Shown piece by piece: positions 1-16,008 of a stretch of DNA of 64,000 bases (position 1 is its first letter; each line of letters begins with the position of its first letter). This DNA is from a virus. The stretch is from the IMG/VR virus record IMGVR_UViG_3300024261_000014, positions 19,880 through 83,879 of that record, one strand, 5' to 3'. A model generated the notes under the pieces. That model had not been told where the DNA came from. It saw only the letters and a list, made by a program, of their open reading frames with translations, and searched no databases. A program made the position numbers and the translations under genes.

Positions 1-221
1 ATTTCTCTGAAGTTATCTCGTAGTTCACCAATAGTTATTTTCTTTTCATCAACTTGTTCTAATCCTTGATTCAAATTAAAACAAATATCAATAATCACAT
101 TCTCTTTGTTTTCAATCTTAGTTAATGCTTTTTGTACACTAAGTAGATAATCTTTTATTATATCAATTTCATAGAATTGTACTAAACAACCTATCGCAAT
201 CTTGTTGGTTAACTTATGCAT
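1..221 (-). CDS. 5' part of a gene running off the window (possibly glycosyltransferase-like)
   Basis: Hand-translated MHKLTNKIAIGCLVQFYEIDIIKDYL..., open to base 1; the ATG overlaps the stop of the upstream gene; function guessed from context only. Confidence 0.55.
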   Translation of the reverse strand, partial: MHKLTNKIAIGCLVQFYEIDIIKDYLLSVQKALTKIENKENVIIDICFNLNQGLEQVDEKKITIGELRDNFRE

Positions 222-978: not shown

Positions 979-1195
979 TAAAAACCTCTATACATAATAT
1001 GTTTTTATCATTAACCATTATCCAAGTACCATCCATCTGTTTAAACTTAGTGAACTGCCCTTGTAACAATGATTTTGATAAGACATGATTAAATGTTCTT
1101 TTCTCACCACCAACAAAATGTATGATTTGTGTTACCACTTCACCTACTGCATTTACTGATGACCTTAAATCTGTATATTCTTTACTACTATCCAT
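968..1195 (-). CDS. small hypothetical protein
   Basis: Overlaps both neighbours in an operon-like arrangement. Confidence 0.6.
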   Translation of the reverse strand: MDSSKEYTDLRSSVNAVGEVVTQIIHFVGGEKRTFNHVLSKSLLQGQFTKFKQMDGTWIMVNDKNILCIEVFNEE

Positions 1196-1808
1196 TTTTC
1201 CTTAACCCTACTATCGTTTGTCCACCCTCTCCTACTTGTGTATCTTTTATACTAACAACTTCAGTATAATAATCAAACACTTTATGATATTCTGGTCTTG
1301 GCCAGAAATCGTGTATGAAAACGATGGAATCTTCATCTATATAATTTAATACTTTGTATGCACAATCTGTTCTTGCTCTACCATCTATGAATACTATATC
1401 AAAATGGTCAACCCCCAAGTTATCTACATAATCTATGTACTCACCCCAAACATATTTATCTCTTGGATATACACAATCATCTAACTTTGGTATATTATGA
1501 TTATCTAAATGTTCTGAAGCATATAGTATATTATCATCATACTTGTTCCAAAATTCTTCTCTATTGGTTGGTACACCCTTTGGTATATCACATAAGTGTA
1601 TTTCTGCGTTATTAAGTTTATCATCATATAATTCCTGTTGTACATTCCAATACCAATCTAAGTTATGTTCTATACTATAAAACTTCTTTACATACTTTGG
1701 GAATATTGTAGTACTACCACCACAACCCCACTCTAACATTACCGAATCATCTTTGCAATAACTCTGTACTAATTCTATTTCTCGTGGATGTATATTAGGT
1801 GTTAACAT
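1188..1808 (-). CDS. class I SAM-dependent methyltransferase
   Basis: MLEWGCGGST (motif I), SIEH, FDIVFIDGRAR, IHDF. Confidence 0.8.
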   Translation of the reverse strand: MLTPNIHPREIELVQSYCKDDSVMLEWGCGGSTTIFPKYVKKFYSIEHNLDWYWNVQQELYDDKLNNAEIHLCDIPKGVPTNREEFWNKYDDNILYASEHLDNHNIPKLDDCVYPRDKYVWGEYIDYVDNLGVDHFDIVFIDGRARTDCAYKVLNYIDEDSIVFIHDFWPRPEYHKVFDYYTEVVSIKDTQVGEGGQTIVGLRKNG

Positions 1809-2335
1809 AATCTTGAAAATGTATGTCTATCATTTTGGTTACCATAAACTAATTCGTAATCGCGTTCGATTGTTTTAAAACTCATACCATTTCGTGATTC
1901 AGCAATTCTATCCCTTGAATCAGAACCACCCTCAAATAGTATATGTTTACCTTTCTTAATCATATCTTGTATAAACTCATTATCTAATATTTTTTTGATT
2001 CTTTGACCTTCGTTATGAACATCTATGTAGAGTAAATCAAATTCTATTGGATTATCAAAGTATGTATCATAACTTTCATTGTAGTAATATATATCATCTA
2101 CGATGCCCCAAGTACCAAAGTTTTTTGATGCACCTTGATATTTTTCTTCATCTAATTCTCGTGAATGTAATTCACCACCATAAGTTTCTTGTGCTTTTCT
2201 CATATAGATTGTTGTAGAACCCCAACCACTGCCAAACTCTATAATAGTTTTAGGTTTATGTTCTATAACATAATCATACATCTTTTCCAAATAACCTTTA
2301 GGATAAGGTGTTGGAAGATTTACATTTGGGTACAT
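1802..2335 (-). CDS. class I SAM-dependent methyltransferase (Methyltransf_24-like)
   Basis: IIEFGSGWGST and FDLLYIDV motifs. Confidence 0.75.
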   Translation of the reverse strand: MYPNVNLPTPYPKGYLEKMYDYVIEHKPKTIIEFGSGWGSTTIYMRKAQETYGGELHSRELDEEKYQGASKNFGTWGIVDDIYYYNESYDTYFDNPIEFDLLYIDVHNEGQRIKKILDNEFIQDMIKKGKHILFEGGSDSRDRIAESRNGMSFKTIERDYELVYGNQNDRHTFSRLC

Positions 2336-3501
2336 TACCAGCCTTTTTTAATAGTCTGAACGATATACTCTCGTTCTTTTTTAGTAACCCACCACCCAAC
2401 TGGTATTGCAATTAATCTTGGTGCAATCCTATCAAGTGTAGGTAGGTTTCTCTGAAATTCCTTTACACAACTATGAATATCATTTCTCTCGTGAACTTGT
2501 GATACCATAATATCGTGTTTCTTCATATGTTCCATAAAATCATCTTTTCTATCAACTAATAAACTATAAATCCAAAACGATGATTTGTGATTAGGTTTTC
2601 TTTCTAATAATTGTACATCTGTTACATCACTCAACTCTTCATCATAGTATTGTGCGTTATCTTGGTGTTTACCAACTATCTCATCTAAATGTTTAAAGTT
2701 CTCAATACCAAGTGTTGCAGCAATATCATTCATATGAAATTTGAATCCCCACTCTTTGATATCCTCTTCACATCTGAAATCTTTCTTATTAGATTCTCTA
2801 TCTATACCATACCATCTTAACAACTTAGACCTATCATATGATTCTCTATCTGGTGTGATTAATATCCCACCATCACCCGTTGTGATATGTTTAATTGCCT
2901 GGAAACTGAAAGTACTCCAATTACCATATGAACCTACTGGTTTGTTATTATATGTAGAACCCATCGCGTGAGCACAATCTTCTATAATTGCTGGTTTAAA
3001 ACCAAATCTTTTTTCTGTGTTCCTTGCAATCATATCTAATCTATCTAAATCGACTGGATAACCACCCCAATGTACAACAAATATAACTTTTGTTTTCTTT
3101 GTTATCTTTCTCTCTAAATCCACTAAATCCATATTCAATGTGTTCTCATCTACATCAACCCATTTTATTTTTAGGTTGTTTGCAAGTATTGGCCAATTGG
3201 TTGCAGTACAAGTTAGTGGTGTAGTTAATACTTCATCACCATCTTTTAAACCAGGCCATACTTCTCTTGATGCACACCCATCAAATACTTCTTGTATTGG
3301 ATTCTTCAATTGATGTAGTGCCAAATGTTCTGCAGATGTTGCAGCATTTACAGTCGATATATAATCAACTCCAAAGTATTCTTTTAGATTACTTTCAAAT
3401 TCTTCTACCTTTGGCCCTTGTCCTATAAACCCACTCTCCAATACCTTTCGTACTGATTTGTGAGCATTCTTGTCCATAAATACTTTAAATAGTGGTATCA
3501 T
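2335..3501 (-). CDS. DegT/DnrJ/EryC1/StrS family PLP-dependent sugar aminotransferase
   Basis: GPKVEEFE, VHWGGYP, IEDCAHAMG, FSFQAIKHITTGDGG (PLP lysine). Confidence 0.95.
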   Translation of the reverse strand: MIPLFKVFMDKNAHKSVRKVLESGFIGQGPKVEEFESNLKEYFGVDYISTVNAATSAEHLALHQLKNPIQEVFDGCASREVWPGLKDGDEVLTTPLTCTATNWPILANNLKIKWVDVDENTLNMDLVDLERKITKKTKVIFVVHWGGYPVDLDRLDMIARNTEKRFGFKPAIIEDCAHAMGSTYNNKPVGSYGNWSTFSFQAIKHITTGDGGILITPDRESYDRSKLLRWYGIDRESNKKDFRCEEDIKEWGFKFHMNDIAATLGIENFKHLDEIVGKHQDNAQYYDEELSDVTDVQLLERKPNHKSSFWIYSLLVDRKDDFMEHMKKHDIMVSQVHERNDIHSCVKEFQRNLPTLDRIAPRLIAIPVGWWVTKKEREYIVQTIKKGW

Positions 3502-4222
3502 CTAAGTATCTCCTCGCTTCCTTGTTCCATAAATCTATGGTTTCTTGTGGTCTTGTTTCTCCTCTACCATAATGGAAGAAGAATGGTTTTTGATTGATTG
3601 AACATTGTTCTCCGTGTGGTAAATTTAAAATGTGTTTTGATTTATCACCAACATATTGTCCTTGCATTGTAAATGATGTATTCTCTAATATAATACAACT
3701 CTCTCTATTCTCTGCTGCTACCTTAGTTATGTTACCACAACTATCAATGTGAGTTGCATCAGGATACAAATCATACTTCTCAAAATTCTCTCGTTTAAAT
3801 ATCATAAACATTTCTCTACATATACTTCTATCAAACCTATTACTCACCAAGAAAACATTTTCTATTAGTGGTAATATATCCTCTGTCCAAGTATCAAGGA
3901 ATAATATATCTGAATCTAAAAAACAAACTATTGGATTGGAAGTATTTTTCATACCCATTGTTAATCCTGCAGAATGATTTATACTACCATCACCAGGTTT
4001 CTTCCAAACACCATTTTGTGGGCCTTTTAATATCTGATAGTTATCCTTATCCTTATAAAGTTCTTTGTATCGTTTTACATCATCACCATTATCAACTATA
4101 GTTACATCAAATGGATGGTCTACGAACTTCTCCACACTTTCAAGTGCGAGTTTTACATACTCGGTATTCTTGAAACTTACTATTATAAAATCTATTTTAT
4201 TTAATGTGTTGACCACTATCAT
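3485..4222 (-). CDS. family 2 glycosyltransferase
   Basis: IIVSFK, IVDNG and FLDSD motifs. Confidence 0.85.
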   Translation of the reverse strand: MIVVNTLNKIDFIIVSFKNTEYVKLALESVEKFVDHPFDVTIVDNGDDVKRYKELYKDKDNYQILKGPQNGVWKKPGDGSINHSAGLTMGMKNTSNPIVCFLDSDILFLDTWTEDILPLIENVFLVSNRFDRSICREMFMIFKRENFEKYDLYPDATHIDSCGNITKVAAENRESCIILENTSFTMQGQYVGDKSKHILNLPHGEQCSINQKPFFFHYGRGETRPQETIDLWNKEARRYLDDTTI

Positions 4223-4940
4223 CCCTTGAATTTGAATTGTAAGTATGTCCTTCTAACCCAAAATTAATAAATGGATTAAGTGATACTACATCACAATCAT
4301 ACACTAATTTTAATCTTTTCTTTACCGCAATTGTTTGTGGTTCAATACTACCAACCCATTTAGAAGCACTCGTGTAGTTATCTGCACTATGCCAATCTGA
4401 TTCGGTATATGTTGGGTCATATAACTCCCCATCAATACTACCACAATCATGTCCAACTAAAATAATATTCTGAGCACCCATATATGCTGCGAGATTTAAT
4501 GCACTCGTAACAGTCGAGCGAGATACAACTAATTTATCTGTACCTATTACTGATAACACCTCGTCGCCCATCTCCGCACTTTTGTTATCTAAGTGTTCGA
4601 AATACCAACCACTTTTCTCTGGTGCAAGATTTGGTTTATTCTTACCATCTGATAAATGAGCAGTATGATATTCTGAAAAAATCAATTTAATATCAGTTTT
4701 TTTAATCTCTTCTACCATTCTGGTAAATCGTGGTCGTTCTCGTAAATCCTTTGCTATCACATAGTTACAAGGAAACTTCTTGAAAACATTATTAACCCCA
4801 ATTACAATCTTATCAGTAAAGAATCTTGCTGGAAAATAATCCGAACTTGGACCAGCACAAATCACATAAATATCTTTACCTTTATGTGTATCCTTAAATT
4901 CCTTTATACTTCTATAATCCATAAACCCTCTTATAAACAA
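4197..4940 (-). CDS. DUF115/MAF-like (MptE-fold) putative nonulosonic acid transferase
   Basis: HKGKDIYVICAGPS, IGVNN, LAAYMGAQNIILVGHD; adjacent to a CMP-sugar synthetase. Confidence 0.7.
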   Translation of the reverse strand: MFIRGFMDYRSIKEFKDTHKGKDIYVICAGPSSDYFPARFFTDKIVIGVNNVFKKFPCNYVIAKDLRERPRFTRMVEEIKKTDIKLIFSEYHTAHLSDGKNKPNLAPEKSGWYFEHLDNKSAEMGDEVLSVIGTDKLVVSRSTVTSALNLAAYMGAQNIILVGHDCGSIDGELYDPTYTESDWHSADNYTSASKWVGSIEPQTIAVKKRLKLVYDCDVVSLNPFINFGLEGHTYNSNSRDDSGQHIK

Positions 4941-5562
4941 ACTCTGCTGTCATAAAATCAAACTCTGTATCTATATCAATACTTTCTATTTCATCTGTGA
5001 TATGAAATGTAGGTTCAACTACAACATTCTTATGTTTGTATAAATCTTCTTTGGATAAAATACAACAACCATAATTTACCGAATAGATATCAGGTAAATC
5101 TTGCGAGTTTGGTGATTCACTTGGGTTATAATTCAATGGTCTACCATCTAACCACATATGATGTTTTTGTGGTGTGACAGTAACAATATTTTTTAAATCA
5201 TTTTCCTTATACTTAGTAACTATCTCTGTAATAGTTTCACTACTTAGTAATGGTGATGTACAAGGTGCATACATAATATCACCCTCATCAACTATCGTGG
5301 ATAGGTTTTGCATAAAATCACTATTGTTAACAATGTTACTTGCAAAGTGTTCATCTCTTTTGTGTGTACTAACATTGTGTTTTTCTGCAATAAATAACAT
5401 TTCATCAGAATCACTCGATACAATTATCTCATCGATACCTTGTACTTTCTTTAGTGTTTCTATTTTTATGTCTAATAGAGTAGAGTTAGCAAAAGGTTTT
5501 AGATTTTTATTCTTTACCCTTTGTGAACCTGCTCTTACTGGTATGATTGCTGTTAATTTCAT
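4912..5562 (-). CDS. neuA: acylneuraminate (CMP-nonulosonic acid) cytidylyltransferase
   Basis: AIIPVRAGSQRVKNKN, CTSPLL, SQDLP, SIDIDTEFDF. Confidence 0.92.
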   Translation of the reverse strand: MKLTAIIPVRAGSQRVKNKNLKPFANSTLLDIKIETLKKVQGIDEIIVSSDSDEMLFIAEKHNVSTHKRDEHFASNIVNNSDFMQNLSTIVDEGDIMYAPCTSPLLSSETITEIVTKYKENDLKNIVTVTPQKHHMWLDGRPLNYNPSESPNSQDLPDIYSVNYGCCILSKEDLYKHKNVVVEPTFHITDEIESIDIDTEFDFMTAEFVYKRVYGL

Positions 5563-5583
5563 AATAACCCTTTAATATAAATA

Positions 5584-6204
5584 TTAATAAATTTTGTAAA
5601 GAGAACATTTTTTTGTCTCTGTTTCTGGTGTTCTCCAATATGTCCACGCGTTTCCGTTTTTATATATATTGTAAATATCTGTGTACATCTCAACATTTAA
5701 TTCACACTCGAACAACTTATGTTTGTAGAAATCCATTTCTATTCGTCTTGGTATTTCGTGGTGTGATGGCCAATGCGTTTCATATTGTAATAAATCTGTA
5801 ATCAATAATGGTTTATCAACCCTCGTGTACATTAACTCAAATAACATTTTGTGGTCTATCATCCCATACTCACCCATTGGATTATGTGTAAATACAAAAT
5901 CACATTCCTTTGAGTTTACACAATCCACAATAGTGTTTTGCATATCCTCTAATGTAGTTCCACGAGTTTCTAATTTATAAAATTCTGATGGATAATCAAA
6001 ACAAGTTAATGGAATTTCATACTTATCACATACTTCTTGTAATAGAAGTTTCCTATGAGCATATTCTTGTCTTACTGGATTATTAAAATCCGTACTACAC
6101 ATTATGATTTCTTTTTCATAATCATCATCTTGGAATATTGGCCAACCAAATATTATCTCATCATCGGGATGTGCCAACACCATTACTACCTTTGTTTTAG
6201 CCAT
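5584..6204 (-). CDS. PIG-L/LmbE family N-deacetylase
   Basis: AHPDDE and THNPxGEYGxxDH motifs; probable start MAKTK. Confidence 0.8.
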   Translation of the reverse strand: MAKTKVVMVLAHPDDEIIFGWPIFQDDDYEKEIIMCSTDFNNPVRQEYAHRKLLLQEVCDKYEIPLTCFDYPSEFYKLETRGTTLEDMQNTIVDCVNSKECDFVFTHNPMGEYGMIDHKMLFELMYTRVDKPLLITDLLQYETHWPSHHEIPRRIEMDFYKHKLFECELNVEMYTDIYNIYKNGNAWTYWRTPETETKKCSLYKIY

Positions 6205-6967
6205 CTTGATTCTCCAAATAATAATCTGCAACTTTTTTATGTCCAGTATGTAGTATGATTACATCATCAATACCCACACTCATATCACAAACACACCATT
6301 GAAATGGTAATATGTAAGGATTAACCCCACTCTTCCATATTGCTCTCCACATTGATAAAGGGCCTCTTGCTGGATTTGTTTCCATCTCGTTACAATATTC
6401 TTCTAATAATTTTCTACCACTCTCACTTTTGGTATGTAGAGCAATTGGTGACATATTCGTAATCATACCATTACCTCGTGTTACATCTTCATTAATATTA
6501 TAATTACCATCCATACCACGAATACCATCAAACCTAACCTGTAGTCTTGGATTCTCAGGAATAGTAACTCCAAACTTTTCTGTTAGTGGTAGTAGTGTAT
6601 TCACTTCACTATTAACTACATACATATCTGAATCCATACATATAGCATAATCCTTATCAGATTCCAACAAACCTTTTACTTTGTAATAATCATTACTTCT
6701 ATTTCCATATCGCTCTTCACCTTTACTTGAAATGTGATTATCCTTGAAAATATTATCAGTAACATTAATTACTTTATAAGTGATATCAGTTTGTACACTA
6801 ATCTCTGTATCTGTATATATTGTTAAACTTACATCGTGTTCATCACTTATATTATCTGTGAATGTAGTTAATGTTGGGTCTAATCGTTGTGAACCATCAA
6901 AAACATTTCCACCCATATTTTTTCGTTCTTCTCCGAACTCTGCCATTACTAATTCTATGCTAGCCAT
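6197..6967 (-). CDS. putative GT-A glycosyltransferase
   Basis: ICMDSDMY DxD motif, YYKV, C-terminal ILH; glycosylation-cluster context. Confidence 0.55.
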   Translation of the reverse strand: MASIELVMAEFGEERKNMGGNVFDGSQRLDPTLTTFTDNISDEHDVSLTIYTDTEISVQTDITYKVINVTDNIFKDNHISSKGEERYGNRSNDYYKVKGLLESDKDYAICMDSDMYVVNSEVNTLLPLTEKFGVTIPENPRLQVRFDGIRGMDGNYNINEDVTRGNGMITNMSPIALHTKSESGRKLLEEYCNEMETNPARGPLSMWRAIWKSGVNPYILPFQWCVCDMSVGIDDVIILHTGHKKVADYYLENQDG

Positions 6968-6994
6968 CGTTTAATATCCTTGTTCTTAACTCGG

Positions 6995-7816
6995 TTAATA
7001 TCGCCATGCTAATCTCCTACCATCTTCATTATCTATCTTTACCTTTGGGTAATACTTTGGATGTAAATATCTGAACACTTCTTGGTCATCTGCCAATTTC
7101 ATATGTTCAGGTGCTTCTGGTGGATGTTGTGTGAATTGTTTATCGTATTTTAATTTCAACGCTTCTTCAAGTAATTCAATTAAGAACTCCGTTTTTCCAA
7201 TCACAACTCCACTATTCAAATATAATCCTTTTTGGTTATCCATATGTGATAATGCTTCTCTTCCCCACTCTCCGTGAAAACCACCTTTGTTTCCTTTACA
7301 AAATGTAGTACTCATAAATAATGCATCACAATCATAACCATAGAATATATCTATAATTTTTTGTGGGTCATCTTGAAAAATAACATCTCCCGCATCACAC
7401 CACATTGATAATTCTGTTTGTTCATTATTTTTTAAATATTCTAAAATCCATTCTTCTTTCATTAAGTGAGAATACATACCATACTTCTCAATCATCTTCT
7501 CGTCCACTATATGGTGGCCACACACGGGTTTCGATACAACTACGGGTGTTCCTATGCCTAAATGTTCTAAATTTCTTTCAAAAATAGTTACCTTTCTACC
7601 ATCTTCCAATTCGTATAATTGATTGTAACGATGTAGTTTAGATTCCGCAGTTCCTGTCTCATCATCAATATAATTGTGGGCAGTTATAAAAGTTATATTA
7701 TCAGGTTTGGTATAAGAATCCTTTTGTACATCATTCTCTATCATCCAGTCCATAATCTCTCTTGCGTGTTCACCCGCGTGAACGATTGGTTGTTTTATCT
7801 CTGAATGTGGTCTCAT
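6995..7816 (-). CDS. PLOD (lysyl hydroxylase)-type glycosyltransferase domain protein
   Basis: CDAGDV, YLNSGVVIG and DDQ motifs typical of the PLOD GT domain. Confidence 0.65.
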   Translation of the reverse strand: MRPHSEIKQPIVHAGEHAREIMDWMIENDVQKDSYTKPDNITFITAHNYIDDETGTAESKLHRYNQLYELEDGRKVTIFERNLEHLGIGTPVVVSKPVCGHHIVDEKMIEKYGMYSHLMKEEWILEYLKNNEQTELSMWCDAGDVIFQDDPQKIIDIFYGYDCDALFMSTTFCKGNKGGFHGEWGREALSHMDNQKGLYLNSGVVIGKTEFLIELLEEALKLKYDKQFTQHPPEAPEHMKLADDQEVFRYLHPKYYPKVKIDNEDGRRLAWRY

Positions 7817-8487
7817 AATCTATCCATAATATATTCTGCAAATAGTTCGTGAGCTTTTTCATTAGGATGGTATTCTGGTTTTAATCCAGCATACTCTAAT
7901 GCAAATTCTCTAAATGTTTCACTTGGGTTAATCAAACTTGGAAACCTACCTGTATCAATATTTTGTATATACAACTTGTTCACTTTATCTAAATCAAACC
8001 CATCTATAATCTCTGCTCCAGTCTGATTCCACATTGTATGCTGTCCACCATCTATTTTGAAAAAGAAATAATTGATATTATGTTTTTTTAGGAATGATTC
8101 TACAACTGATACTTCCCACATAAAATCTAACATATCCTTTTCTGTGGATTGGAACATACCATAGTAATAATATGGAGCATCGTGTCTGTTACCTACTGAA
8201 TTAGGTGTTAACCCTTTCCAACCACCATCGTAATACTCCCACCTTGAAACCAAACTCCACCCAACAACAACATCTAAATCTTTTGTATCTTTACCACTAT
8301 CAACATACTCCATCAAGTAATCCATAGTCTTTCTACAAATTTCTTCATTACCTGCACCACATCTTGCGTGGTTTATAACATTCATATTTCTTGTACTTGA
8401 TATTATAGATGGAAACCTCTGAACTTCAGGATGTCCTAATTCATCCCCAAGAGTAAAACTACAACCATTTGCGTATAATGTTTTCAT
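7813..8487 (-). CDS. SGNH-hydrolase-like phage protein
   Basis: NGCSFT, NxAxxGAGN, HPNxxAH. Confidence 0.7.
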   Translation of the reverse strand: MKTLYANGCSFTLGDELGHPEVQRFPSIISSTRNMNVINHARCGAGNEEICRKTMDYLMEYVDSGKDTKDLDVVVGWSLVSRWEYYDGGWKGLTPNSVGNRHDAPYYYYGMFQSTEKDMLDFMWEVSVVESFLKKHNINYFFFKIDGGQHTMWNQTGAEIIDGFDLDKVNKLYIQNIDTGRFPSLINPSETFREFALEYAGLKPEYHPNEKAHELFAEYIMDRL

Positions 8488-8594
8488 TTATATATAAACG
8501 GGTCTTTTTTCTTTACATTCTGCAATTTCCTTTTAATCTTACGATTCATTCTAAAATCTTCTATCTTATTTAGTATCCAATACCACAATCTCAC
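8484..8594 (-). CDS. small basic protein (36 aa), absent from the ORF track
   Basis: GTG start, MRLWYWILNKIEDFRMNRKIKRKLQNVKKKDPFIYK*; fills the gap exactly and overlaps both neighbours. Confidence 0.55.
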   Translation of the reverse strand: MRLWYWILNKIEDFRMNRKIKRKLQNVKKKDPFIYK

Positions 8595-9589
8595 AATACT
8601 TCCTCTAATATTTCATCCCAATTATTATCATATGTAATACCTCTATCATCTATATAATATTCTGCTCTTGGTTTCTCCCAAGTGATTTCATCTACATATT
8701 GTAATACATCGTGTTTATCCAACCACTCTTCTACTAATTCTATCCCAGTCTTTCCATTTACTAATGGTCTATCAGGTCTACCTTTAGCAGTAAAGATTAT
8801 TATATTCCACTTCGTGTATAATTTTCTTAATGCTTCTAAACTACCTGGTAGTGGTTCTCCATAACAAGTACCATCATACCAACCCTTATCCATATTGTGA
8901 ATAACACCATCAAAATCAACTGCAATATTCTTTTGTTCGTTCTCAAATCCAGGTGGTACATTCAAATTAGATATTTCAGTATTTACTTCTGATTCTATTC
9001 CCAAATCTTCAAATCTTCTTTGGGTTGCTTTATCAGCAATAGTTGGACATTTAAAACCAGCACCATGAATTAATTCATATGTTAATGCAAGTGATAATAT
9101 TTCTGATGTGTGATAATTTATAACATCAAAACTTATAGGAAGAATCCTAACATCTAAATCTTCTTTTGGTTGAGCACTCCACAAACATCCATTCATACCA
9201 ATATCAACAGCATAATTCAACGCGTTTACTAATGAGTTTGATGATGCTCCTGTCGTTGAACAACTCATCCCAATTGCCAAACACTTAGAAGTATCCAATC
9301 CTCGTGTTCTTATCTCTAACCACTTTGACAACCAAGTTTCAAATGATTCATCTGAAATAATTGATGTTGCAAGGATACCACTACCTGGAGCAATAATATT
9401 CTTATCTGTTAATCTTGAACCATCAATTGCTGCGTGGTCAGCTATTCCAAGATTACCACCATGCCCAAACAAAAAGATATGTTCTGCTTTATTATATTTT
9501 TCTTGTAATTTTTTCCATTCATCGGTTCTACCTATACTCTTAAACTTTCTATCAAAATTTTCTATATTAACCATCTGTTTCTTCCTCAT
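8591..9589 (-). CDS. SIS-domain (GmhA-like) fused to HAD-family phosphatase
   Basis: N-terminal FLFGHGGNLGIADHAAID; C-terminal AVDFDGVIH, FTAK, KP, YYIDDR. Confidence 0.75.
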   Translation of the reverse strand: MRKKQMVNIENFDRKFKSIGRTDEWKKLQEKYNKAEHIFLFGHGGNLGIADHAAIDGSRLTDKNIIAPGSGILATSIISDESFETWLSKWLEIRTRGLDTSKCLAIGMSCSTTGASSNSLVNALNYAVDIGMNGCLWSAQPKEDLDVRILPISFDVINYHTSEILSLALTYELIHGAGFKCPTIADKATQRRFEDLGIESEVNTEISNLNVPPGFENEQKNIAVDFDGVIHNMDKGWYDGTCYGEPLPGSLEALRKLYTKWNIIIFTAKGRPDRPLVNGKTGIELVEEWLDKHDVLQYVDEITWEKPRAEYYIDDRGITYDNNWDEILEEVL

Positions 9590-10595
9590 TTATTTCTTTA
9601 AACATATTAACAACATGCTCTAAATAATTTTTCACATCATATACTTTTAAATATTGTTCTCTTGCATAAGTAGTTACTTTATCATTAAGGTTATTAAAAT
9701 CTTCTACAATACCACCAACTACCTCATTTAAATCTGACCAATCATATTGAACTCCGAAATATGTTTTACCCTCTACATACATATTTGGTGCAGTATCAAC
9801 TAACCCCATTGTTGGTTTAACCATTATTGTATTCGTTGCCCATATCTCAAAATCTCTAAAACATATCTCACCCATACCAAATGGTGATAAACAAACTTTA
9901 GAATTATATAAATAGTTAATATAATCTTGATATGGTAACATATCTTTATTAGATATAAAATCAATACTCAACTCATTCCACGCACCCCTTCTATGTTTAG
10001 TATATGGAATATCATTTCTCATTTCGTGTTCATAATTCTCTTTGTGTTCTGCTTGATATATTGCACAAACATCATATGGTTTAACATTTGCTGATGGCAT
10101 TATTAAATCCTTATCAAATAAATGTCCTTGTAAATATCCAAGATTCCATCCACTCAATGCTATTTTTTTCCACTCATCTTCAGTAATATCGTAACTTAGG
10201 TTATTTTCACCTTTACCCCAAAACCATCTACCAAAATCCGCGGGAGTATTATATAATTCTCGTTTTAATAACTGATTCTTTATATAACGCGTTGGGTTAG
10301 TATTTCTCATCACCTCAATACCACCCATCAATGATGTAGAATCTGAACCATCAAACATCATAAATCTACCACCTTGTGTTAGTTTCTCTACATTTTCAGT
10401 TCCCCATTCAATACTATATTTCAATGGTATCTTTTTATTTATAAAATCATGCATACCAATAAACATTACATCAAAATCATCTGATTCAGTTATTTCTACA
10501 CCATAATTTCTAAAATGGTCTTTACACGCCATAAATATTCTAAATGTTGGTTCGTTTCTATCAAGAGTCGGATTTATAACTTTTACTTTTATCAT
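9567..10595 (-). CDS. GT-B-type glycosyltransferase
   Basis: YLYNSKVCLSPFGMGEICFRDFE motif. Confidence 0.7.
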   Translation of the reverse strand: MIKVKVINPTLDRNEPTFRIFMACKDHFRNYGVEITESDDFDVMFIGMHDFINKKIPLKYSIEWGTENVEKLTQGGRFMMFDGSDSTSLMGGIEVMRNTNPTRYIKNQLLKRELYNTPADFGRWFWGKGENNLSYDITEDEWKKIALSGWNLGYLQGHLFDKDLIMPSANVKPYDVCAIYQAEHKENYEHEMRNDIPYTKHRRGAWNELSIDFISNKDMLPYQDYINYLYNSKVCLSPFGMGEICFRDFEIWATNTIMVKPTMGLVDTAPNMYVEGKTYFGVQYDWSDLNEVVGGIVEDFNNLNDKVTTYAREQYLKVYDVKNYLEHVVNMFKEINEEETDG

Positions 10596-10834
10596 AGATG
10601 GGTATCCATTATTATTGCACTATAAAGTTGATTTTGGGTTTCTTGTTTATGTATGGTTTTTGGGTGATACAAACTCAATTCCTCTTGTGGTGGTATATGA
10701 GCAAAGGTTTTACAGCCCGTAATCATTTCGTGTACTTTTCTTCTCCACCTAATATCTGGTGAATTTCTAAATACTCTTGATTGAAAATCGGGCGAATTAA
10801 TTATCGGAACTTTATATTTTACTTTGACTTTCAT
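10592..10834 (-). CDS. C-terminal fragment of a split GT2 glycosyltransferase
   Basis: INSPDFQSRVFRN..IRW..KVHE..LYHPK is the typical GT2 C-terminal part (PDxQxR, W..VHE). Confidence 0.75.
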   Translation of the reverse strand: MKVKVKYKVPIINSPDFQSRVFRNSPDIRWRRKVHEMITGCKTFAHIPPQEELSLYHPKTIHKQETQNQLYSAIIMDTHL

Positions 10835-11492
10835 CTATAACCTTTACATCTAATATTAATTTATCACTCTTTTTAAGATTTGTTTCCCAATCTATAAATC
10901 TTAGATTACTTATATCACCAATTCTTTCAGGCTCAATACCCCACTCAAATCCCAATCTCACAGGTATTATGTGGTCTAATTGATAAGCTCCACTTACACC
11001 ACATTTATCACGAGGCTTATCATAATTTTCTAATGTATGAATTGGTTGATTATTCGTAATACTTCTAACTTGTCGTTGATATTTTTTATACTCACTCAAT
11101 TCACTTAAATATTCTTCGTAACTTATATTTTTTTCTTTTAGTATGGATTGTATTCTAACTGAATCTTCTCCCGTTTTAGTAAAAACGCTATTTTTTCGCA
11201 ACCAATCTTTTTGATGCTCTGAAACTCCACCATTTCCATTTCTTCTTCGACTATCCCATATTTTATCATTCCACACCAGTTTCCGCCCCTTAAGCGCCTT
11301 ACCAATCTTTTCTTTATGTTCTTTTGTCAGCGTTTTTAATTTGCCACTACAACTTTTACAATTCAGTTTTTTATTCTCTGAATTATTTCTAGCATATTTA
11401 CTTTTATATGTAATTGTAACATTACACTTAGGACATTTCCTATTAAATAAATTCGGTATTTCTTTATTCCATCTCATATTAATAAGTATCAT
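10812..11492 (-). mobile_element. free-standing HNH homing endonuclease gene (Zn-ribbon, NUMOD3-like DNA-binding segment, HNH)
   Basis: CPKC..CKSC, TKEHKEKIGKALKG, YQLDHIIP..NLRFI....N; sits between the two halves of a GT2 gene; probable start near 11477. Confidence 0.85.
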
Positions 11493-11528
11493 TTGATTGT
11501 ATTTTTCACTAAGTAAAAGATAAAATAA

Positions 11529-12062
11529 CTAAATTTTCTTTTCATCAACAATTAAGTCCATTTTTTTCAAAAGTTTATATTCTTCACTTTCAGTATCCAT
11601 AACCTTTTCATTATAGATTTCATATGGTGCATTAACTCTCCATCCCCATTTCTGAATATGATGTTCTGTTATACCATCGACTGTATTCACTCTTGGTACA
11701 TATATTAAATCAACTCCATCATTCATTTCTATTATTTGTTTAAGTTGTTGTAATAATGTTTCGTGTGGATATTCATCGGCATCTATATGCATGATGTAGT
11801 CTCCACTACAATTTTCTATAACTGAATTTTTTTGTGAAGCAAAATCACCATCAAGTTTTCTATGATACACCTTGATAGTTTTCATATCTTCGTGTCCATA
11901 TTGTTGAACCCAACTCGTTATAACTTCTTGTACTTGTTCATCCTCACCATCAACGCAAATAACTATTTCATCTTCCACATCTGTTTTGTGGATAAGGATT
12001 TCTAATAAATTATTTAACTCTTCAGATTCATTGTGGACAGTAATACCATAACTAATTTTCAA
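11529..12062 (-). CDS. N-terminal fragment of a split GT2 glycosyltransferase
   Basis: ISYGITVHNE, DFASQKN, HIDADE, VPRVNTV; probable TTG start at 12062 overlapping the upstream stop. Confidence 0.8.
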   Translation of the reverse strand: MKISYGITVHNESEELNNLLEILIHKTDVEDEIVICVDGEDEQVQEVITSWVQQYGHEDMKTIKVYHRKLDGDFASQKNSVIENCSGDYIMHIDADEYPHETLLQQLKQIIEMNDGVDLIYVPRVNTVDGITEHHIQKWGWRVNAPYEIYNEKVMDTESEEYKLLKKMDLIVDEKKI

Positions 12063-12558
12063 ATCCAGCCTCAATTTGTTTTGTGAACTTTCGTTCCATT
12101 TCTTTACTAAATTCAACTAATGTATCTTTTGGTATTTTATTGTAATCCACTTCGAGATACACTCTTCGTTTTAAACATTCTCTTCTATCAAATGTTCTGT
12201 AATTTTTATAATTCTTAACTAATGCTTTTAATCTTCTGTACATTACTCGTGTTTGAGCTTTTGAAACTCTATCAGGTAAATCTGCTGCAATTGCTTCTTC
12301 TTCAAACTCTAACCCACCAAGTTTACCAAACAACTTCTCAACTTTACTTTCTGTTAATGGTCTTGTAATTGCAGTATCTAATACTAATCCCGCAACAAAT
12401 CTTTTAATTCGTTTAGTAGTTTTTTTTCTAAATCGTAAATCTGGATTTAGTAATAATATGGTTCTCTTGTATCCACGAGTCTCACCCTTTGATTTATACA
12501 TAAAGGTTACTATCTGACCTGGTTCAACTTTCGTCCATGCGGTATTCCGTACCGACAT
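12052..12558 (-). CDS. hypothetical basic protein
   Basis: Closely packed ORF; no recognisable motif. Confidence 0.6.
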   Translation of the reverse strand: MSVRNTAWTKVEPGQIVTFMYKSKGETRGYKRTILLLNPDLRFRKKTTKRIKRFVAGLVLDTAITRPLTESKVEKLFGKLGGLEFEEEAIAADLPDRVSKAQTRVMYRRLKALVKNYKNYRTFDRRECLKRRVYLEVDYNKIPKDTLVEFSKEMERKFTKQIEAGFEN

Positions 12559-12560
12559 TA

Positions 12561-13022
12561 TTAATCAAGGTCCTTGATTATACCCATCTCTTTACAAGCA
12601 TCTAAGAACTCGTGTTGACCATAGGTTTTAGCATTATCTACATCTAATATACTATCATGTCCTTTATACTTATCATCCTTTAGTTCTAAATCTGTTAACT
12701 TACGAACTTCTGCTAATTTATAATTCCAACTACTCTGAACTCCATCTGGATAAACAACTCCTAATTTCCCCATATTCAATACTGATGGAAACCACATGAG
12801 TTCTCGTTCTTCATCATAGAATGAAATATCATTCATTAATTGTGATGAACCTATTTGTGCTTTTTTCAAATCAGGAGAATCCCAAGTGTATGTTGAATTA
12901 CTTGTGAACCCACAATTAAAACACATAAATGAAGAAAACTTTTTCTCTTCAAGTACTTGTTCATCCTCAAAACATCGTTTATCATTAAAACAATTTGGAC
13001 AAGTTATTACTTTTTCAGCCAT
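12561..13022 (-). CDS. hypothetical Zn-ribbon protein
   Basis: CPNC ... CFNCGF. Confidence 0.65.
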   Translation of the reverse strand: MAEKVITCPNCFNDKRCFEDEQVLEEKKFSSFMCFNCGFTSNSTYTWDSPDLKKAQIGSSQLMNDISFYDEERELMWFPSVLNMGKLGVVYPDGVQSSWNYKLAEVRKLTDLELKDDKYKGHDSILDVDNAKTYGQHEFLDACKEMGIIKDLD

Positions 13023-13023
13023 T

Positions 13024-14352
13024 TTATACCTTCTTCAATTTGGGTAATTTTAACCCTTTGTTATCTTCTACTTTACTTAACTTCGGCAGTTTCAATTCTA
13101 CTTGCTGGGGAACTGATGCTATAATTGGGTCAAGGATAGCTTCAAGTTTATTCTTCATTGCTTCATAAGAAAATTGTAACTTAGTGTATGCTTGTAATTG
13201 TTTACCCTTTACCACGTACTTACTATAATTATTGTGAATCTCAGTAAAAATACTCGATGCAACATTATAATTGACAGTAATCCACTTATTTTCTGGTGAA
13301 TCAAACGCCATATCCTTTGGAAACGCATCCATAGGAACTTTTGTTAATGAACCAGGTAATAACTGAGCATAATTCTTATGTAAAAAATCTACATGACCAC
13401 TCCATCCTGGAGCAACAATTGGTTTACCACTCTGTGCAGCTTCTAATAATGGTCTACCGAAACCCTCTCCGTGAGTAAATGTAACGTGGGCCTTTACTTT
13501 TGGATGATTATATAATTCATTCATCTCACTATCCGTAAAATCTCCATGTATCAAATATATATTCGGAAGTTTACTACCAACCACCCCTTCTTTAATATAA
13601 GTAATTTTATTTAAAATATCTTCCCTATCTAATATAGAAAAATCTGCACCACTGGTTTTCAATAATAATGCTGGCTGATTTCTTGTATTTTTGAAAGTTT
13701 CCAAGAATACTTTAATTAACATACCAACATCTTTTCTATCTTTCCCGATACTTCCACCTAACCAATGACCCGTAAACAAATAACAAAAATCCTCTTTAAT
13801 TGGTTTGAATGCACGTTTAGTAGTTTTACCAAATGTTTTTGTTTCTTTATAAACATTAGTATCTACACCCTCAAATAAAACACTCATTGGTTTATTCACT
13901 TTTAATTCTTGATTCTTGTTTGGGTTTTGTTTATCTTCAATATTAAATGCTGCTTGTTCAAAAACTGCTTTTGAAAACTCTGATGTAAATATAGTTTCAT
14001 CCATACGATTTACACCCTCTACCCATCGTGGTATAGGTATTGTAGATTCAATTCCAGCAGTCATACCAACATTCTTCCTACCGATTGGGTTGAACTCTCC
14101 AGGAATAACTATATGTAAATGTACATCGGGTTGTTTTTGTAAGTCGGGCCCGGTCATTAAATGTGATTTAATTTTATCGTGTTGTGAGTTATTTTCTTCC
14201 AATGCGGTCATTGGTGTATTACCCCACCGAACTGAATTTATTTTCACATCGTATTTATCTAATTCAATCAATGCACTACAAATATCCCTTGAGTGATTTC
14301 CGTATCCACTACGAGTTTTGACTGGTGCCGTTACTAATATCATTGGTTTCAT
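13024..14352 (-). CDS. GT4-like (GT-B) glycosyltransferase
   Basis: TRSGYG, DRKDVG, THGEGFGRPLLEA, SGHVDF. Confidence 0.9.
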   Translation of the reverse strand: MKPMILVTAPVKTRSGYGNHSRDICSALIELDKYDVKINSVRWGNTPMTALEENNSQHDKIKSHLMTGPDLQKQPDVHLHIVIPGEFNPIGRKNVGMTAGIESTIPIPRWVEGVNRMDETIFTSEFSKAVFEQAAFNIEDKQNPNKNQELKVNKPMSVLFEGVDTNVYKETKTFGKTTKRAFKPIKEDFCYLFTGHWLGGSIGKDRKDVGMLIKVFLETFKNTRNQPALLLKTSGADFSILDREDILNKITYIKEGVVGSKLPNIYLIHGDFTDSEMNELYNHPKVKAHVTFTHGEGFGRPLLEAAQSGKPIVAPGWSGHVDFLHKNYAQLLPGSLTKVPMDAFPKDMAFDSPENKWITVNYNVASSIFTEIHNNYSKYVVKGKQLQAYTKLQFSYEAMKNKLEAILDPIIASVPQQVELKLPKLSKVEDNKGLKLPKLKKV

Positions 14353-14355
14353 ATT

Positions 14356-15792
14356 CTACGCCTTATATGTGTTAACTTTATGTCTTGGTGTCCATTTCTC
14401 AAATGCAGTTTCCATATGGTCTATGAAATTCTTACACATCCATCGTGCACTCATCATAGATTCATCACTACACACCCATTCGTGTCCAATAAACCCACAC
14501 TCTTCTCTTGCTTCCTTACCCATTTCATACCATTCTTTTATGGCATTTCCAGCATCCTCCCAATCACATCTATCATCAAAGATATATGGTGTTGGTACTG
14601 AACCCATTAGTGAACGAGTCTTAGGCCAGACTGGTTTACACCACTCACCCCAAGTTAATTCTGAGTTATGTTCCCACTTCTTCCAATCGTGTAATGATAG
14701 TAATTCCTTATAATCATCTGAAGTTAAGAACTTATCATTAATTTTAAATCCTACTTGGTCTTGTAATCCACCCGTAACATTAACAATAATTGGTGTTCCA
14801 CTCATTAATGATTCACAAGTTCCCAATCCGAATCCTTCATTGGATGCAATATTCATTGTTACATCGGCAATATTATATAGGAAATTCATTTGTTTATTAT
14901 CAAGTTTCTTATCACTAAACACTACATTTATTTCTGGTGCAATTGCATTAATTAATGCTGGTAAATCAGTTCCATTCCCATCAACTGGTTGAGTATGCAT
15001 TACATAGGTAACTTTATCTCTCTCTTCGGGTGGGATTGAATTAACAAAATGTTGAAATGCAAGAATACAATCACCCATCATTTTCCTACGAATATTTCTA
15101 TTCACATATAACAATGTGAAGTTATGGGGCCTATTACCCAATAACTCATTCTTAAATTTCCTCATTTCCAATAACTCAGCATCATCTTTAATTGGATAGA
15201 ATTGTGTTTCGTTAATTCCGTGTGGTAAGTATGTAGAATCCCAATCTGTTCTTGGTTTTGTTTTTGCAACTTCATTAACTAATCCAACAGTCTGTTTGGA
15301 AATATTCATAATCAAATCACAACTCTCATAAAAGAACTCATTATAATGTGGTGCAGGTAAATCATCCCAAATATTATAATAAAATATAGGAATGTTCTGT
15401 CTTAATTCGTGTTCCATGTGGTATAACCACCCCCAAAATCTTGGGTCTGTGTAGTGTAGAATAGCATCAGGTTTCTCAAGTTCCATAATCTCTTTTAAAA
15501 TATCTGGATTACCATAACCATCAATTGGATAAACTTTTAAATATCCATCTTTCACACCAGTCTCTTCCAACACGGCATCGTGCATATCAACCACTTTACC
15601 TTTATCTGGATGTTCTATTGCTCCACCAATCTGAACCCAATCGTATTTATCGATTGTACCCAATACAAATTCTCTTGACATCGTACCAACCCCACTTGAC
15701 ATACGAAGGTCATCTGATAAAAGTAGTATCTTTTTCTTCTTACGAGCTTGTACTTCTTTTACTGACTTTAATTTTGGTAATTTAATATCCAT
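14356..15792 (-). CDS. GT4-like (GT-B) glycosyltransferase
   Basis: PHGIN, NRNIRRK, SNEGFGLGTCESL, TGGLQDQ. Confidence 0.9.
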   Translation of the reverse strand: MDIKLPKLKSVKEVQARKKKKILLLSDDLRMSSGVGTMSREFVLGTIDKYDWVQIGGAIEHPDKGKVVDMHDAVLEETGVKDGYLKVYPIDGYGNPDILKEIMELEKPDAILHYTDPRFWGWLYHMEHELRQNIPIFYYNIWDDLPAPHYNEFFYESCDLIMNISKQTVGLVNEVAKTKPRTDWDSTYLPHGINETQFYPIKDDAELLEMRKFKNELLGNRPHNFTLLYVNRNIRRKMMGDCILAFQHFVNSIPPEERDKVTYVMHTQPVDGNGTDLPALINAIAPEINVVFSDKKLDNKQMNFLYNIADVTMNIASNEGFGLGTCESLMSGTPIIVNVTGGLQDQVGFKINDKFLTSDDYKELLSLHDWKKWEHNSELTWGEWCKPVWPKTRSLMGSVPTPYIFDDRCDWEDAGNAIKEWYEMGKEAREECGFIGHEWVCSDESMMSARWMCKNFIDHMETAFEKWTPRHKVNTYKA

Positions 15793-15813
15793 TTATAACC
15801 CTTATTATTTAAA

Positions 15814-16008
15814 TTAAAATTTACTTCCACTTTGAAATAATTTGTCATGCTCGAGAATTTCCTTCCGGAACTCATCATCATAAACGAATTTATTAAGTGT
15901 ACGATTTACCAACTTCTGTAGTGAAAACTCTGATTCTATTGTCTCACTTTTAAATTTACTATACAACTCCGATATTACTTTCACCGAAGTTAATTTTATC
16001 TCTTTCAT
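15814..16008 (-). CDS. small protein, possibly ribbon-helix-helix DNA-binding
   Basis: LTSVKV beta strand followed by two helices (LYSKFK, SLQKLVNRTL); GAGG RBS. Confidence 0.55.
   Translation of the reverse strand: MKEIKLTSVKVISELYSKFKSETIESEFSLQKLVNRTLNKFVYDDEFRKEILEHDKLFQSGSKF

Follow-up and report, generated by a model that had tools for sequence, protein, structure and literature searches.

How could an enzyme be made from a glycosyltransferase gene that is cut in two, with a putative endonuclease gene lying in the gap? Such a locus occurs on the minus strand of the window (the whole 64,000-nucleotide stretch of viral DNA analysed here, positions 19,880 to 83,879 of IMG/VR record IMGVR_UViG_3300024261_000014), where a family-2 glycosyltransferase (GT2) gene is split by a cassette into two separately read pieces. 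As the probable explanation, we propose that a mobile cassette made this "gene in pieces", that the two halves re-form a GT2 enzyme non-covalently, and that the split and its tails can outlast the nuclease.

Architecture of the split locus

The host is a large marine myovirus, and the split gene lies in its sugar-modification island, with other sugar-pathway genes as neighbours. The features of the locus are listed in Table 1. Relatives of the N-half begin with M/L-K-I-S-Y-G, and the TTG codon at 12062 was therefore taken as its likely start. The enzyme part of the N-half, which was aligned to intact homologs of 210-222 aa, comprises the nucleotide-sugar-binding half and the D-A-D-E motif. The N-half ends with ...KWGWRVN, followed by APYEIYNEKVMDTESEEYKLLKKMDLIVDEKKI and the stop codon. 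The endonuclease-like ORF between the halves is in its own frame and is fused to neither of them; it overlaps the C-half in a different frame, and the first 23 nt of the leader also encode the last seven residues and the stop codon of the HNH-like protein. The initial annotation, made from the letters alone, had placed a free-standing HNH gene in the gap, with a short spacer on one side and an overlap on the other, and this geometry was borne out (36 nt and 23 nt, respectively).

The locus is no assembly artefact: 17 public runs each contain half or more of its sampled words (20 holder rows from 16 studies). A scan of positions 10400-12300 found no terminator-like sites and six promoter-like sites against 12.3 expected, which is uninformative.

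Table 1. Features of the split GT2 locus, in window coordinates
Feature	Position	Strand	Content or basis
GT2 N-half	12062-11529	-	ORF 11529..12116
GT2 N-half, enzyme part	11631..12062	-	TTG to N codon of WGWRVN; PF00535, family profile, alignment
5' co-transferred flank	11631..11758	-	identity to contig L004 (60-nt windows, first/last mismatches)
N-half C-terminal tail, cassette-borne	11529..11630	-	33 codons (APYEIY...DEKKI) + TAG
Spacer, N-half stop to HNH ATG	11493..11528	-	36 nt
Free-standing HNH-like gene, 226 aa	10812..11492	-	phrog_5104, phrog_6050, invariant residues, NUMOD3
GT2 C-half, 80 aa	10592..10834	-	starts MKVKVKYKVPI, then INSPDFQSR...W...VHE
C-half N-terminal leader (MKVKVKYKVPI)	10802..10834	-	10-11 aa, basic
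GT2 C-half, enzyme part	10592..10801	-	INSPDFQSR...VHE...PP.EELSLYH.K to stop; family profile

Two halves of one predicted enzyme

Do the halves derive from a single enzyme, cut once? Among the best 120 homologs listed, 110 are uninterrupted proteins of 205-225 aa. In a profile built from these 110 sequences, the N-half matches positions 1-144 (E 3.8e-91) and the C-half matches positions 147-213 (E 5.3e-34), which upholds the earlier reading of a glycosyltransferase gene broken at one point. The N-half also matches Pfam PF00535 (E 6.8e-14; score 52.6 bits, cut-off 23.3), and the C-half has a C-terminal match to phrog_37334. Residues D94, A95, D96, and E97, which are invariant in 77 homologs, are present in the N-half of the window.

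In the AlphaFold2 model of the intact homolog P0016 (pLDDT 92.7), the cut maps to T143-G146, after a bridge at residue 142 and before the strand 147-159, and the break thus modelled falls in a surface turn. The model adopts a GT-A fold, with SunS/ThuS, TarS, and SpsA as the best Foldseek hits. We therefore assign the protein, from its sequence and model, to GT2 with a predicted GT-A fold and an Asp-x-Asp-type motif; its transferase function is likewise predicted.

The tail and the leader

Scores against the glycosyltransferase profile are -0.2 bits for the tail and -2.0 bits for the leader. By this comparison with uninterrupted homologs, the 33-residue tail and the 10-11-residue leader are unrelated to the enzyme family, and the extra terminal segments that had been noticed on both halves are real additions. 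An origin of the two segments as decayed duplicates of the sequence flanking the break was considered, as BLAST extended into the tail, but the profile scores spoke against it, and the idea was rejected. A phmmer search with the 34-aa tail found nothing at E<=0.001 among 1.84 billion representatives, although so short a query makes this a weak search. A structured RNA in the DNA of the tail and leader found no support either: in the nuclease-less allele L032, where the whole insert is 137 nt, the fold energy is ordinary relative to shuffled sequences (z +0.65, or -0.35 with flanks).

The tail is acidic (pI 4.65) and the leader is basic (pI 10.18). In the nine split N-halves, 27 of the 34 tail columns are invariant, as compared with 54 of 149 in the enzyme body, and the leader is invariant through residue 13 (MKVKVKYKVPIIN) in all 12 split C-halves. 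At synonymous sites, pS is 0.09 in the tail core and 0.16 in the leader, as compared with 0.53-0.73 in the flanks (0.53-0.57 for those of the tail); these low values can stem from a recent spread of the cassette instead of selection on the peptides. In the relative P0145, a difference within the overlap alters the HNH-like protein (S to G) and leaves the leader unchanged.

The HNH-like gene

The protein encoded in the gap matches phrog_5104 (E 1e-24) and phrog_6050, "HNH endonuclease" (E 4.3e-4). It contains a zinc ribbon, a weak NUMOD3 element, and a C-terminal D-H...N...N nuclease motif. NUMOD3 is found in four of the seven family members (best E 6.7e-4), and D173, H174, N196, and N205, which we take to be the HNH catalytic motif, are invariant across all seven. 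A Pfam search returned no HNH model at E<=10, and a search with the family profile against the sequences of solved structures gave only zinc-finger hits at chance level (E 0.44-0.95) and none for the nuclease part. The assignment as an HNH protein is weak. Separately, atlas neighbours of the protein that carry PF01844 score 0.87-0.90, and we regard these as leads only.

The window's copy is without the first CxxC...CxxC zinc-ribbon segment found in its two closest relatives, P0144 and P0145 (71% and 66% identical), and may therefore be inactive. The proteins P0144 and P0145 end in the overlap-encoded VIDESQSKI or VTDEGQSKI, which is absent from more distant relatives. The longest contig is 58,789 for both P0144 and P0136, and 1,054 for both P0145 and P0126, where P0136 and P0126 are diverged leader-bearing C-halves. 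On the basis of the equal longest contigs and the overlap-encoded C-terminus, the members of each pair are probably adjacent. Further searches added no full cassettes: with P0144 as the query, one unrelated weak locus appeared in viral contigs and none in genome contigs, and a metagenome scan with the window's HNH-like protein yielded six loci and no new split allele.

Members of the family also adjoin or interrupt sugar-island genes in other marine phage contigs. In L027, for example, an HNH-like gene lies directly upstream of an intact homolog of the glycosyltransferase. The initial annotation had called a glycosyltransferase an unusual target for a homing endonuclease; these neighbourhoods make that rarity a relative one.

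Alleles with three kinds of gap

How did the nuclease gene and the split come together? Related phages carry the same split, with tail and leader, around a gap of three types: with an HNH-like gene (the window and L004), with a tRNA-Tyr gene (L035/L036), and empty (L032/L034). In all three, the variable region lies exactly between the stop codon of the N-half and the ATG of the C-half, and in L032 the C-half starts only 2 nt past the N-half stop. The gap may thus be a site that different tenants occupy. Relatives are split without any HNH gene, and therefore the earlier phrase "fractured by an HNH gene" holds as a description of the gap in the window, while as a statement about origin it is an inference.

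These alleles raise an alternative, in which the split predates the nuclease: a two-gene unit, produced by some earlier event, would have been colonised in its gap later and independently by an HNH gene, by a tRNA-Tyr gene, or by nothing. The exact limits of the variable region fit this account, and so does the fact that the HNH ORF runs into conserved leader DNA, borrowing its last seven codons there. No HNH remnant is found in the gap of L036 (best blastn-short E 0.29), and since such nuclease-less alleles hold no trace of the gene, the nuclease may have settled later in a split that was already there. Free-standing family members are intergenic elsewhere as well, as in L027.

Three observations oppose this account. 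First, the overlap-encoded ends shared by P0144 and P0145, together with their pairing with leader-bearing C-halves, suggest that the nuclease has long been resident in the gap. Second, a recent event appears to have carried a cassette with its HNH gene into an intact-allele background. Contig L004 matches the intact-allele phage L009 at 100% identity for over 1,300 nt, as far as ~11753-11759 in window coordinates; from 11758 to its own end, a stretch that spans the tail and reaches into the HNH gene, it matches the window at 100%. This breakpoint is sharp and lies ~125 nt before the break in the glycosyltransferase gene, and the mosaic therefore points to a recent transfer of the cassette. 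L032 and L036 likewise match at every position around the split (100% identity), yet over most of the first 90 codons their identity falls to 27-67%. Third, the corresponding tails of phage Aeh1 are thought to have come with the endonuclease gene mobE (PMC3045599). We consider an older split unlikely, and keep to the proposal that the mobile cassette made the gene in pieces.

Integrity and modelled assembly of the halves

Are the halves still parts of a working enzyme? In the rival view of a pseudogene in the making, the insertion would have killed the enzyme, and the halves would persist because the event is recent or the transferase is dispensable. Intact alleles are indeed far commoner, as the 110 of the best 120 hits attest. 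Moreover, all of the split alleles have other residues in place of W147, which is invariant in intact enzymes, and of Y150, which is almost invariant there, and the N-half modelled alone is disordered from residue 118 on (pLDDT <50 over nearly all of 118-177). Against these points stands the state of the halves themselves. Nine distinct split N-halves and 12 distinct split C-halves are open and keep the family invariants, with enzyme parts down to 59-62% identity with the window; decay of the C-half in relatives, which had been named as a sign against the earlier claim, is not seen among these 12. The catalytic-type invariants are present on both sides, as D-A-D-E in the N-half and as H-E and PP.EELSLYH in the C-half. 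In both halves pN is well under pS, with pN/pS at ~0.2-0.6 in the enzyme parts, HNH-less alleles included, and nuclease-less split alleles keep the precise coupling of stop and start, as the 2-nt gap of L032 illustrates. This pattern supports the view that purifying selection maintains the two halves, and we judge the pseudogene account to be quite improbable.

A re-formed enzyme is also consistent with the fold model of the two halves, in which they associate with an ipSAE of 0.86 (three runs: 0.82, 0.86, and 0.89), as compared with 0.01 for the best control, although two pieces of a single domain would be expected to score in this way, and likeness alone can pass. Of 157 solved complexes, 116 reach the mark applied to this score, as do two of 215 mismatched pairs. 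The three runs have at least 83% of contacts in common, with a partner pLDDT of at least 80. The modelled interface includes tail residues 145-158, 162, 164-165, 168, and 170-177, and leader residues 1-11; contact between the tail and the leader is not evident from the output. The tail and leader would both exit the enzyme at the turn where it is broken, and they most likely hold the halves together or otherwise shape the assembly. The earlier idea of a reassembly clasp fits these results: the two segments are oppositely charged, surpass the rest of the proteins in conservation, and lie within the modelled interface.

Could splicing instead restore continuity, with the HNH ORF carried by a self-splicing intron, or with the tail and leader acting as a split intein? 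HNH genes often reside in group I introns and inteins, and a Ser follows the leader's I-I-N, as after the terminal Asn of an intein. Marine metagenomes also contain "fractured genes", in which a split intein is accompanied by a free-standing endonuclease gene between the halves (PMC2677866). In agreement with the initial annotation, positions 10300-12300 have no Rfam matches at E<=10, and thus no ribozyme core of a group I intron; no Hint or intein family of Pfam matches the tail, the C-half, or the HNH-like protein at E<=10, and neither HINT halves nor splicing motifs were found. The tail begins with Ala, and the tail and leader total 44 residues. The HINT fold needs ~130 residues. These ends, short and without intein motifs, cannot form an intein fold. 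The insert of L032 is too short and too ordinary in its folding to favour an intron, and halves joined at the borders would be without the conserved turn. Finally, contigs from RNA libraries cross both borders unspliced (X15, 10406-11030 and 11492-11642; X16, 11539-11690; X17, 11462-11711). The contigs of the four RNA-library runs contain no splice joints, though contigs can drop rare spliced forms, and those covering both halves may derive from DNA carry-over. Positions 11360-11423 are uncovered by such contigs in all four runs, and we attach no meaning to this. Splicing is thus the least credible of the explanations, and a most improbable one.

Proposed course of events

The course that we favour, invasion by a mobile cassette followed by non-covalent reassembly, would run as follows. 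First, the cassette, composed of a 33-codon acidic tail with its stop codon, a variable gap, and a new start codon with a 10-11-codon basic leader, would come to sit in a surface turn of a GT2 gene of the GT-A fold. The HNH-like protein may copy, or may once have copied, the cassette into intact alleles, with flanking gene sequence carried along. Second, the two halves would be translated separately, with the start of the C-half overlapping the stop of the HNH gene, and the enzyme would re-form from them non-covalently, without RNA or protein splicing. Finally, in some lineages the nuclease gene would since have been lost or swapped for a tRNA-Tyr gene. We propose that the enzyme can no longer do without the split and the tails, and that they are retained for this reason.

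Comparison with known systems

The closest precedent is nrdA-a/mobE/nrdA-b of phage Aeh1, and the present locus is a well-documented further example of a known trick, with no new principle. The parallel, cited earlier only as a gene split by mobE that works as two polypeptides, proved to be closer than that: the mobE-borne tails were shown to be essential (PMC3045599). Aeh1 NrdA is the one biochemically studied case, and in it tails borne by the insertion can rescue a fragmented enzyme; heterodimers form without the tails but need them to dimerise (Crona et al. 2011, PMC3045599), and the authors of that study predict similar, overlooked tails elsewhere.

The two loci share a free-standing endonuclease gene (of the HNH family in Aeh1, PMC3045599, and HNH-like here) inside a normally continuous gene, a break between adjacent β-strands, an endonuclease ORF that overlaps the downstream half, and a unique tail on each half, unrelated to the host protein and opposite in charge to the other. 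In both cases, related endonuclease genes lie intergenically beside the intact gene in other phages: mobE between nrdA and nrdB, and the HNH-like gene upstream of the intact glycosyltransferase in L027. In Aeh1 there is neither RNA nor protein splicing, and here a lack of splicing is likely, as neither splicing signals nor, in the contigs of the RNA libraries, joints were found. The differences lie in the target, here a GT2 sugar transferase from an auxiliary glycan island and in Aeh1 a DNA-precursor enzyme, and in the charge polarity, which is reversed, the upstream tail being acidic and the downstream leader basic. The Aeh1 tails were tested biochemically, whereas ours are known from sequence and model. 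Conversely, the tails here occur in many diverged alleles, some of them without the endonuclease or with a tRNA gene; no such series is given for Aeh1 (PMC3045599).

In T4 gp39/mobA/gp60, too, a Mob-type insertion splits an enzyme gene in two, with tail-like extensions (PMC3045599; bioRxiv 2022.08.31.505936), and extra cassette sequence travels with the endonuclease gene (PMC3045599). The T4 gene 60 also has a 50-nt translational bypass, while here there is no sign of one, and the 33 conserved tail codons end in an ordinary stop. The "fractured genes" (Dassa et al. 2009, PMC2677866) resemble our locus in their marine, phage-type setting and in the extra peptides at both broken ends. They differ in that those ends are full trans-splicing split-intein halves, in contrast to the 44 residues without intein motifs here, and in that their hosts are DNA synthesis and repair enzymes and not a glycosyltransferase. 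Our literature search found no split phage glycosyltransferase among the matches listed (title and start of abstract).

Implications

The locus provides a case outside DNA metabolism, with comparative evidence beyond that of the Aeh1 paper (PMC3045599): tails better conserved than the enzyme across diverged alleles, a recombinant contig suggestive of a recent transfer, and nuclease-less split alleles. It also offers, on an enzyme of a soluble-sized ~215 aa, testable ideas, namely that the tails are functional and that an endonuclease invasion can permanently turn one gene into two. In practical terms the locus offers a modest gain, with the tail and the leader as candidates for a natural pair in split-protein assembly.

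A bolder reading, which we hold to be possible but doubtful, is that the tail and leader form a portable "cut-and-clasp" module, on which the enzyme would remain dependent after loss of the nuclease, with the protected gap serving as a landing pad for cargo such as a tRNA-Tyr gene. If this is true, the pair would be a very small natural heterodimerising tag, and the intact, nuclease-bearing, tRNA-bearing, and empty-gap alleles would represent the whole life cycle of an endonuclease cassette, the end point of which would be an enzyme that stays in two pieces for good, as opposed to a restored gene.

Architecture of the split locus

The locus comprises the N-half of a family 2 glycosyltransferase (GT2), an HNH-like gene, and the C-half, all on the minus strand, which carries every gene in this part of the window. 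The layout given in the initial annotation is matched by the coordinates of these three ORFs, by a 36-nt spacer between the N-half stop and the ATG of the middle ORF, and by a 23-nt overlap of the middle ORF with the C-half ORF, which is in a different frame. The N-half probably starts at the TTG at 12062, because its relatives begin at M/L-K-I-S-Y-G. Read upstream, the frame continues as far as an ATG at 12116 and overlaps the preceding gene (12052-12558); contigs L023 and L024 also have this upstream frame open. Most homologs begin at the MKISYG position, making the TTG the likelier start. The 83.9-kb virus fragment, estimated to be 41% complete, carries a tail sheath gene, T4-type replication genes, and a sugar-pathway block around the split gene, which also contains several ORFs without a family. 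Among named phages with an intact homolog, the nearest are the Flavobacterium phages in the genus Immutovirus (42% identity).

Features of the split locus and the surrounding sugar-pathway island (window 1-16000)
Feature	Window position	Strand	Remark
GT2 N-half ORF	11529..12116	minus	Pfam Glycos_transf_2 PF00535, E 6.8e-14
HNH-like middle ORF, 226 aa	10812..11492	minus	ORF between the halves
GT2 C-half ORF, 80 aa	10592..10834	minus	family profile match
Aminotransferase	2335-3501		sugar-pathway island
Sialyltransferase-like protein	4197-4940		sugar-pathway island
Protein with phosphoheptose-isomerase-like (sugar-isomerase-like) C-terminal part	8591-9589		sugar-pathway island
Two GT1-like transferases	13024-15792		sugar-pathway island

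A single break in one enzyme gene

How do the two halves relate to the intact enzyme? The N-half search retrieved 5,665 proteins at E<=1e-5, and 110 of the best 120 are 205-225 aa long. The aligned homologs run uninterrupted across the break (...WGW(R/K)V(S/T)E(K/Q)GW(V/I)NYPD(Y/F)Q...). The family profile built from these 110 homologs is matched at positions 1-144 by the N-half (E 3.8e-91) and at positions 147-213 by the C-half (E 5.3e-34); by these matches, the halves are one gene with a single break. The tail ending the N-half (33-34 residues) and the leader opening the C-half score -0.2 and -2.0 bits against the same profile, and both peptides are therefore foreign to the enzyme. An origin as decayed duplicates of the break-flanking sequence is rejected on these scores.

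When the intact homolog P0016 is modelled with AlphaFold2 from a 77-row alignment (mean pLDDT 92.7), the break maps to the turn T143-E-K-G146, which follows a bridge at residue 142 and precedes the long strand 147-159. The best Foldseek matches of this model are the family 2 GT-A enzymes SunS/ThuS, TarS, and SpsA. Trp147, invariant in 77 intact homologs, is Ile in all split alleles (window 10793-10801), and the nearly invariant Tyr150 is Ser, Thr, or Pro. These replacements could be an adaptation to the break or could protect the site from the nuclease.

The intervening gene

The middle protein matches phrog_5104, of unknown function (E 1e-24), and weakly the PHROG family phrog_6050 “HNH endonuclease” (E 4.3e-4); neither a Pfam HNH model nor a solved-structure sequence was matched. 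Asp173, His174, Asn196, and Asn205 are invariant among seven family members, a pattern that we take to be the HNH motif, and four of the seven contain a NUMOD3 motif. Relatives of the nuclease part occur in 242 phage records, mostly T4-like, where they are annotated as hypothetical. We read the gene as a putative HNH-like homing endonuclease. The window copy begins about 24-40 residues later than its two closest relatives, P0144 and P0145, and may be weakened or partly decayed, because it lacks their first N-terminal CxxC...CxxC zinc-ribbon segment.

Sugar islands of other contigs also carry members of this family. In contig L027, a related HNH-like gene of 211 aa (2053-2688; 38% identical overall) lies immediately upstream of an intact GT homolog (2685-3341), whose first 4 nt it overlaps. 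Another phage sugar island, in L003 (the same contig as L028 and L037), contains two broken HNH-like copies (2665-3288 and 4819-5001), the second abutting a 423-aa GT2-like gene, which suggests repeated invasion of glycosylation islands by this family.

The gap and its occupants

A search with a degenerate pattern for the tail recovered another four viral contigs, among which there are two distinct sequences. In L032 and L034, the tailed N-half ends in TAA and the leader ATG follows 2 nt later, with no nuclease gene. L035 and L036 have a 147-nt gap, in which a tRNA-Tyr(GTA) gene (3089-3169 in both) takes the place of the HNH gene; no tRNA gene occurs in the window. Whichever of the three gap types is present, the variable DNA is confined precisely to the stretch from the N-half stop to the C-half start. 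The initial observation, an enzyme gene in two halves that bear extra terminal segments, with a free-standing HNH gene in the gap, is confirmed. The accompanying interpretation is for the most part right, except that the gap has variable tenants, of which the nuclease gene is one. A 2026 paper is reported to connect phage tRNA-Tyr with SegB homing and with escape from the Septu defence (PMC13096335).

The split might be older than the nuclease, a reading that we consider rather unlikely. A nuclease-gene trace was looked for in the 147-nt gap, and none was found. On the other side, the leader overlap encodes the nuclease C-terminus VIDESQSKI in P0144 (71% identical to the window protein) and VTDEGQSKI in P0145 (66%), a peptide absent from more distant HNH-like relatives. 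The longest contigs are equal in size for P0144 and the diverged leader-bearing C-half P0136 (58,789) and for P0145 and the diverged leader-bearing C-half P0126 (1,054), from which we infer that the members of each pair adjoin. The nuclease gene thus appears to have long been resident in this gap.

Conservation and movement of the cassette

The cassette consists of the tail and stop, the gap, and the new start and leader. In nine split N-halves, identity to the window in the enzyme part drops as low as 59%; invariant columns number 27 of 34 in the tail versus 54 of 149 in the enzyme body. The first 13 residues of the C-half are invariant in all 12 split C-halves, and in P0145 the overlap alters the nuclease protein while the leader is unaltered. 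The two peptides differ in charge, with a pI of 4.65 for the acidic tail and 10.18 for the basic leader. When the window is compared with L032 or L036, synonymous differences amount to a proportion of 0.09 in the tail core, 0.16 in the leader, and 0.53-0.73 in the adjoining enzyme codons. This can reflect selection or a cassette younger than its host alleles, and the data fit both.

The split-allele contig L004 matches the intact-allele phage L009 at 100% identity over more than 1,300 nt, ending at window position 11753-11759. Starting at 11758, its identity to the window is 100% across the tail, the spacer, and the first 97 nuclease-gene codons, at which point the contig ends. On the upstream side of the breakpoint, L004 and the window share only 60-87% identity. 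Such a pattern is expected if a cassette-free allele receives a copy of the cassette together with about 125 nt of the flanking gene. L032 and L036 form a similar mosaic: their identity is 100% near the split and 27-67% across most of the first 90 codons. The C-halves P0122 and P0123 share their last 45 residues with the window and differ at residues 12-35, just past the leader.

Modelled assembly of the two halves

The complex model of the N-half and C-half has an ipSAE of 0.86 (runs 0.82, 0.86, and 0.89), while the best control gave 0.01; of 157 solved complexes, 116 attain the ipSAE mark, as do 2 of 215 mismatched pairs. At least 83% of contacts are common to the runs, with a partner pLDDT of at least 80. 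Two pieces of one domain would be expected to attain such a score through likeness to solved folds. The modelled interface includes tail residues 145-158, 162, 164-165, 168, and 170-177 and leader residues 1-11; the list names residues of both peptides without asserting contact between tail and leader. When the N-half is folded alone, its pLDDT stays under 50 throughout nearly all of 118-177, which fits a dependence on the C-half.

A pseudogene is improbable: pN is well below pS for both enzyme halves in every comparison, and both retain the family's invariant residues. The decay of the C-half in relatives, which the initial annotation had named as contrary evidence, was accordingly not seen. 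We consider a functional two-piece enzyme with cassette-borne tails the probable reading.

Continuity restored by splicing is the least credible explanation, as Rfam gave no match at E<=10 in window 10300-12300, and no Hint or intein family was found by Pfam at E<=10 in the tail, C-half, or HNH protein. The entire insert of one relative that lacks the nuclease gene measures 137 nt, and its folding is no stronger than that of shuffled sequences (z +0.65). Joints were looked for in the contigs of four RNA-library runs and none was found; unspliced contigs span both borders (X15, 10406-11030 and 11492-11642; X16, 11539-11690; X17, 11462-11711). These contigs count only weakly against splicing and do not prove expression, because they can come from contaminating DNA and drop rare forms. 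Another contig, X17 record 12, matches 44 nt of the leader region (10769-10812) with four differences, followed by 107 letters unlike the window; its probable source is a divergent split allele present in that sample.

Comparison with known systems

The closest known case of this kind is Aeromonas phage Aeh1. In Aeh1, mobE splits nrdA and bears oppositely charged, essential tails; mobE overlaps nrdA-b there and is intergenic in other phages; and overlooked tails of this kind are predicted elsewhere, with T4 gp39/mobA/gp60 named as a likely second case (PMC3045599). The L027 HNH-like gene beside the intact GT occupies an intergenic position comparable to that of mobE, which in most T-even phages lies between nrdA and nrdB. 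The “fractured genes” with split inteins (PMC2677866) have a similar map but splice. No paper on a split phage glycosyltransferase was among the literature matches listed. The present locus adds a split target, a glycosyltransferase, outside DNA metabolism, a recombinant contig with a sharp breakpoint, and an allele series that keeps the split and the tails without the nuclease gene.
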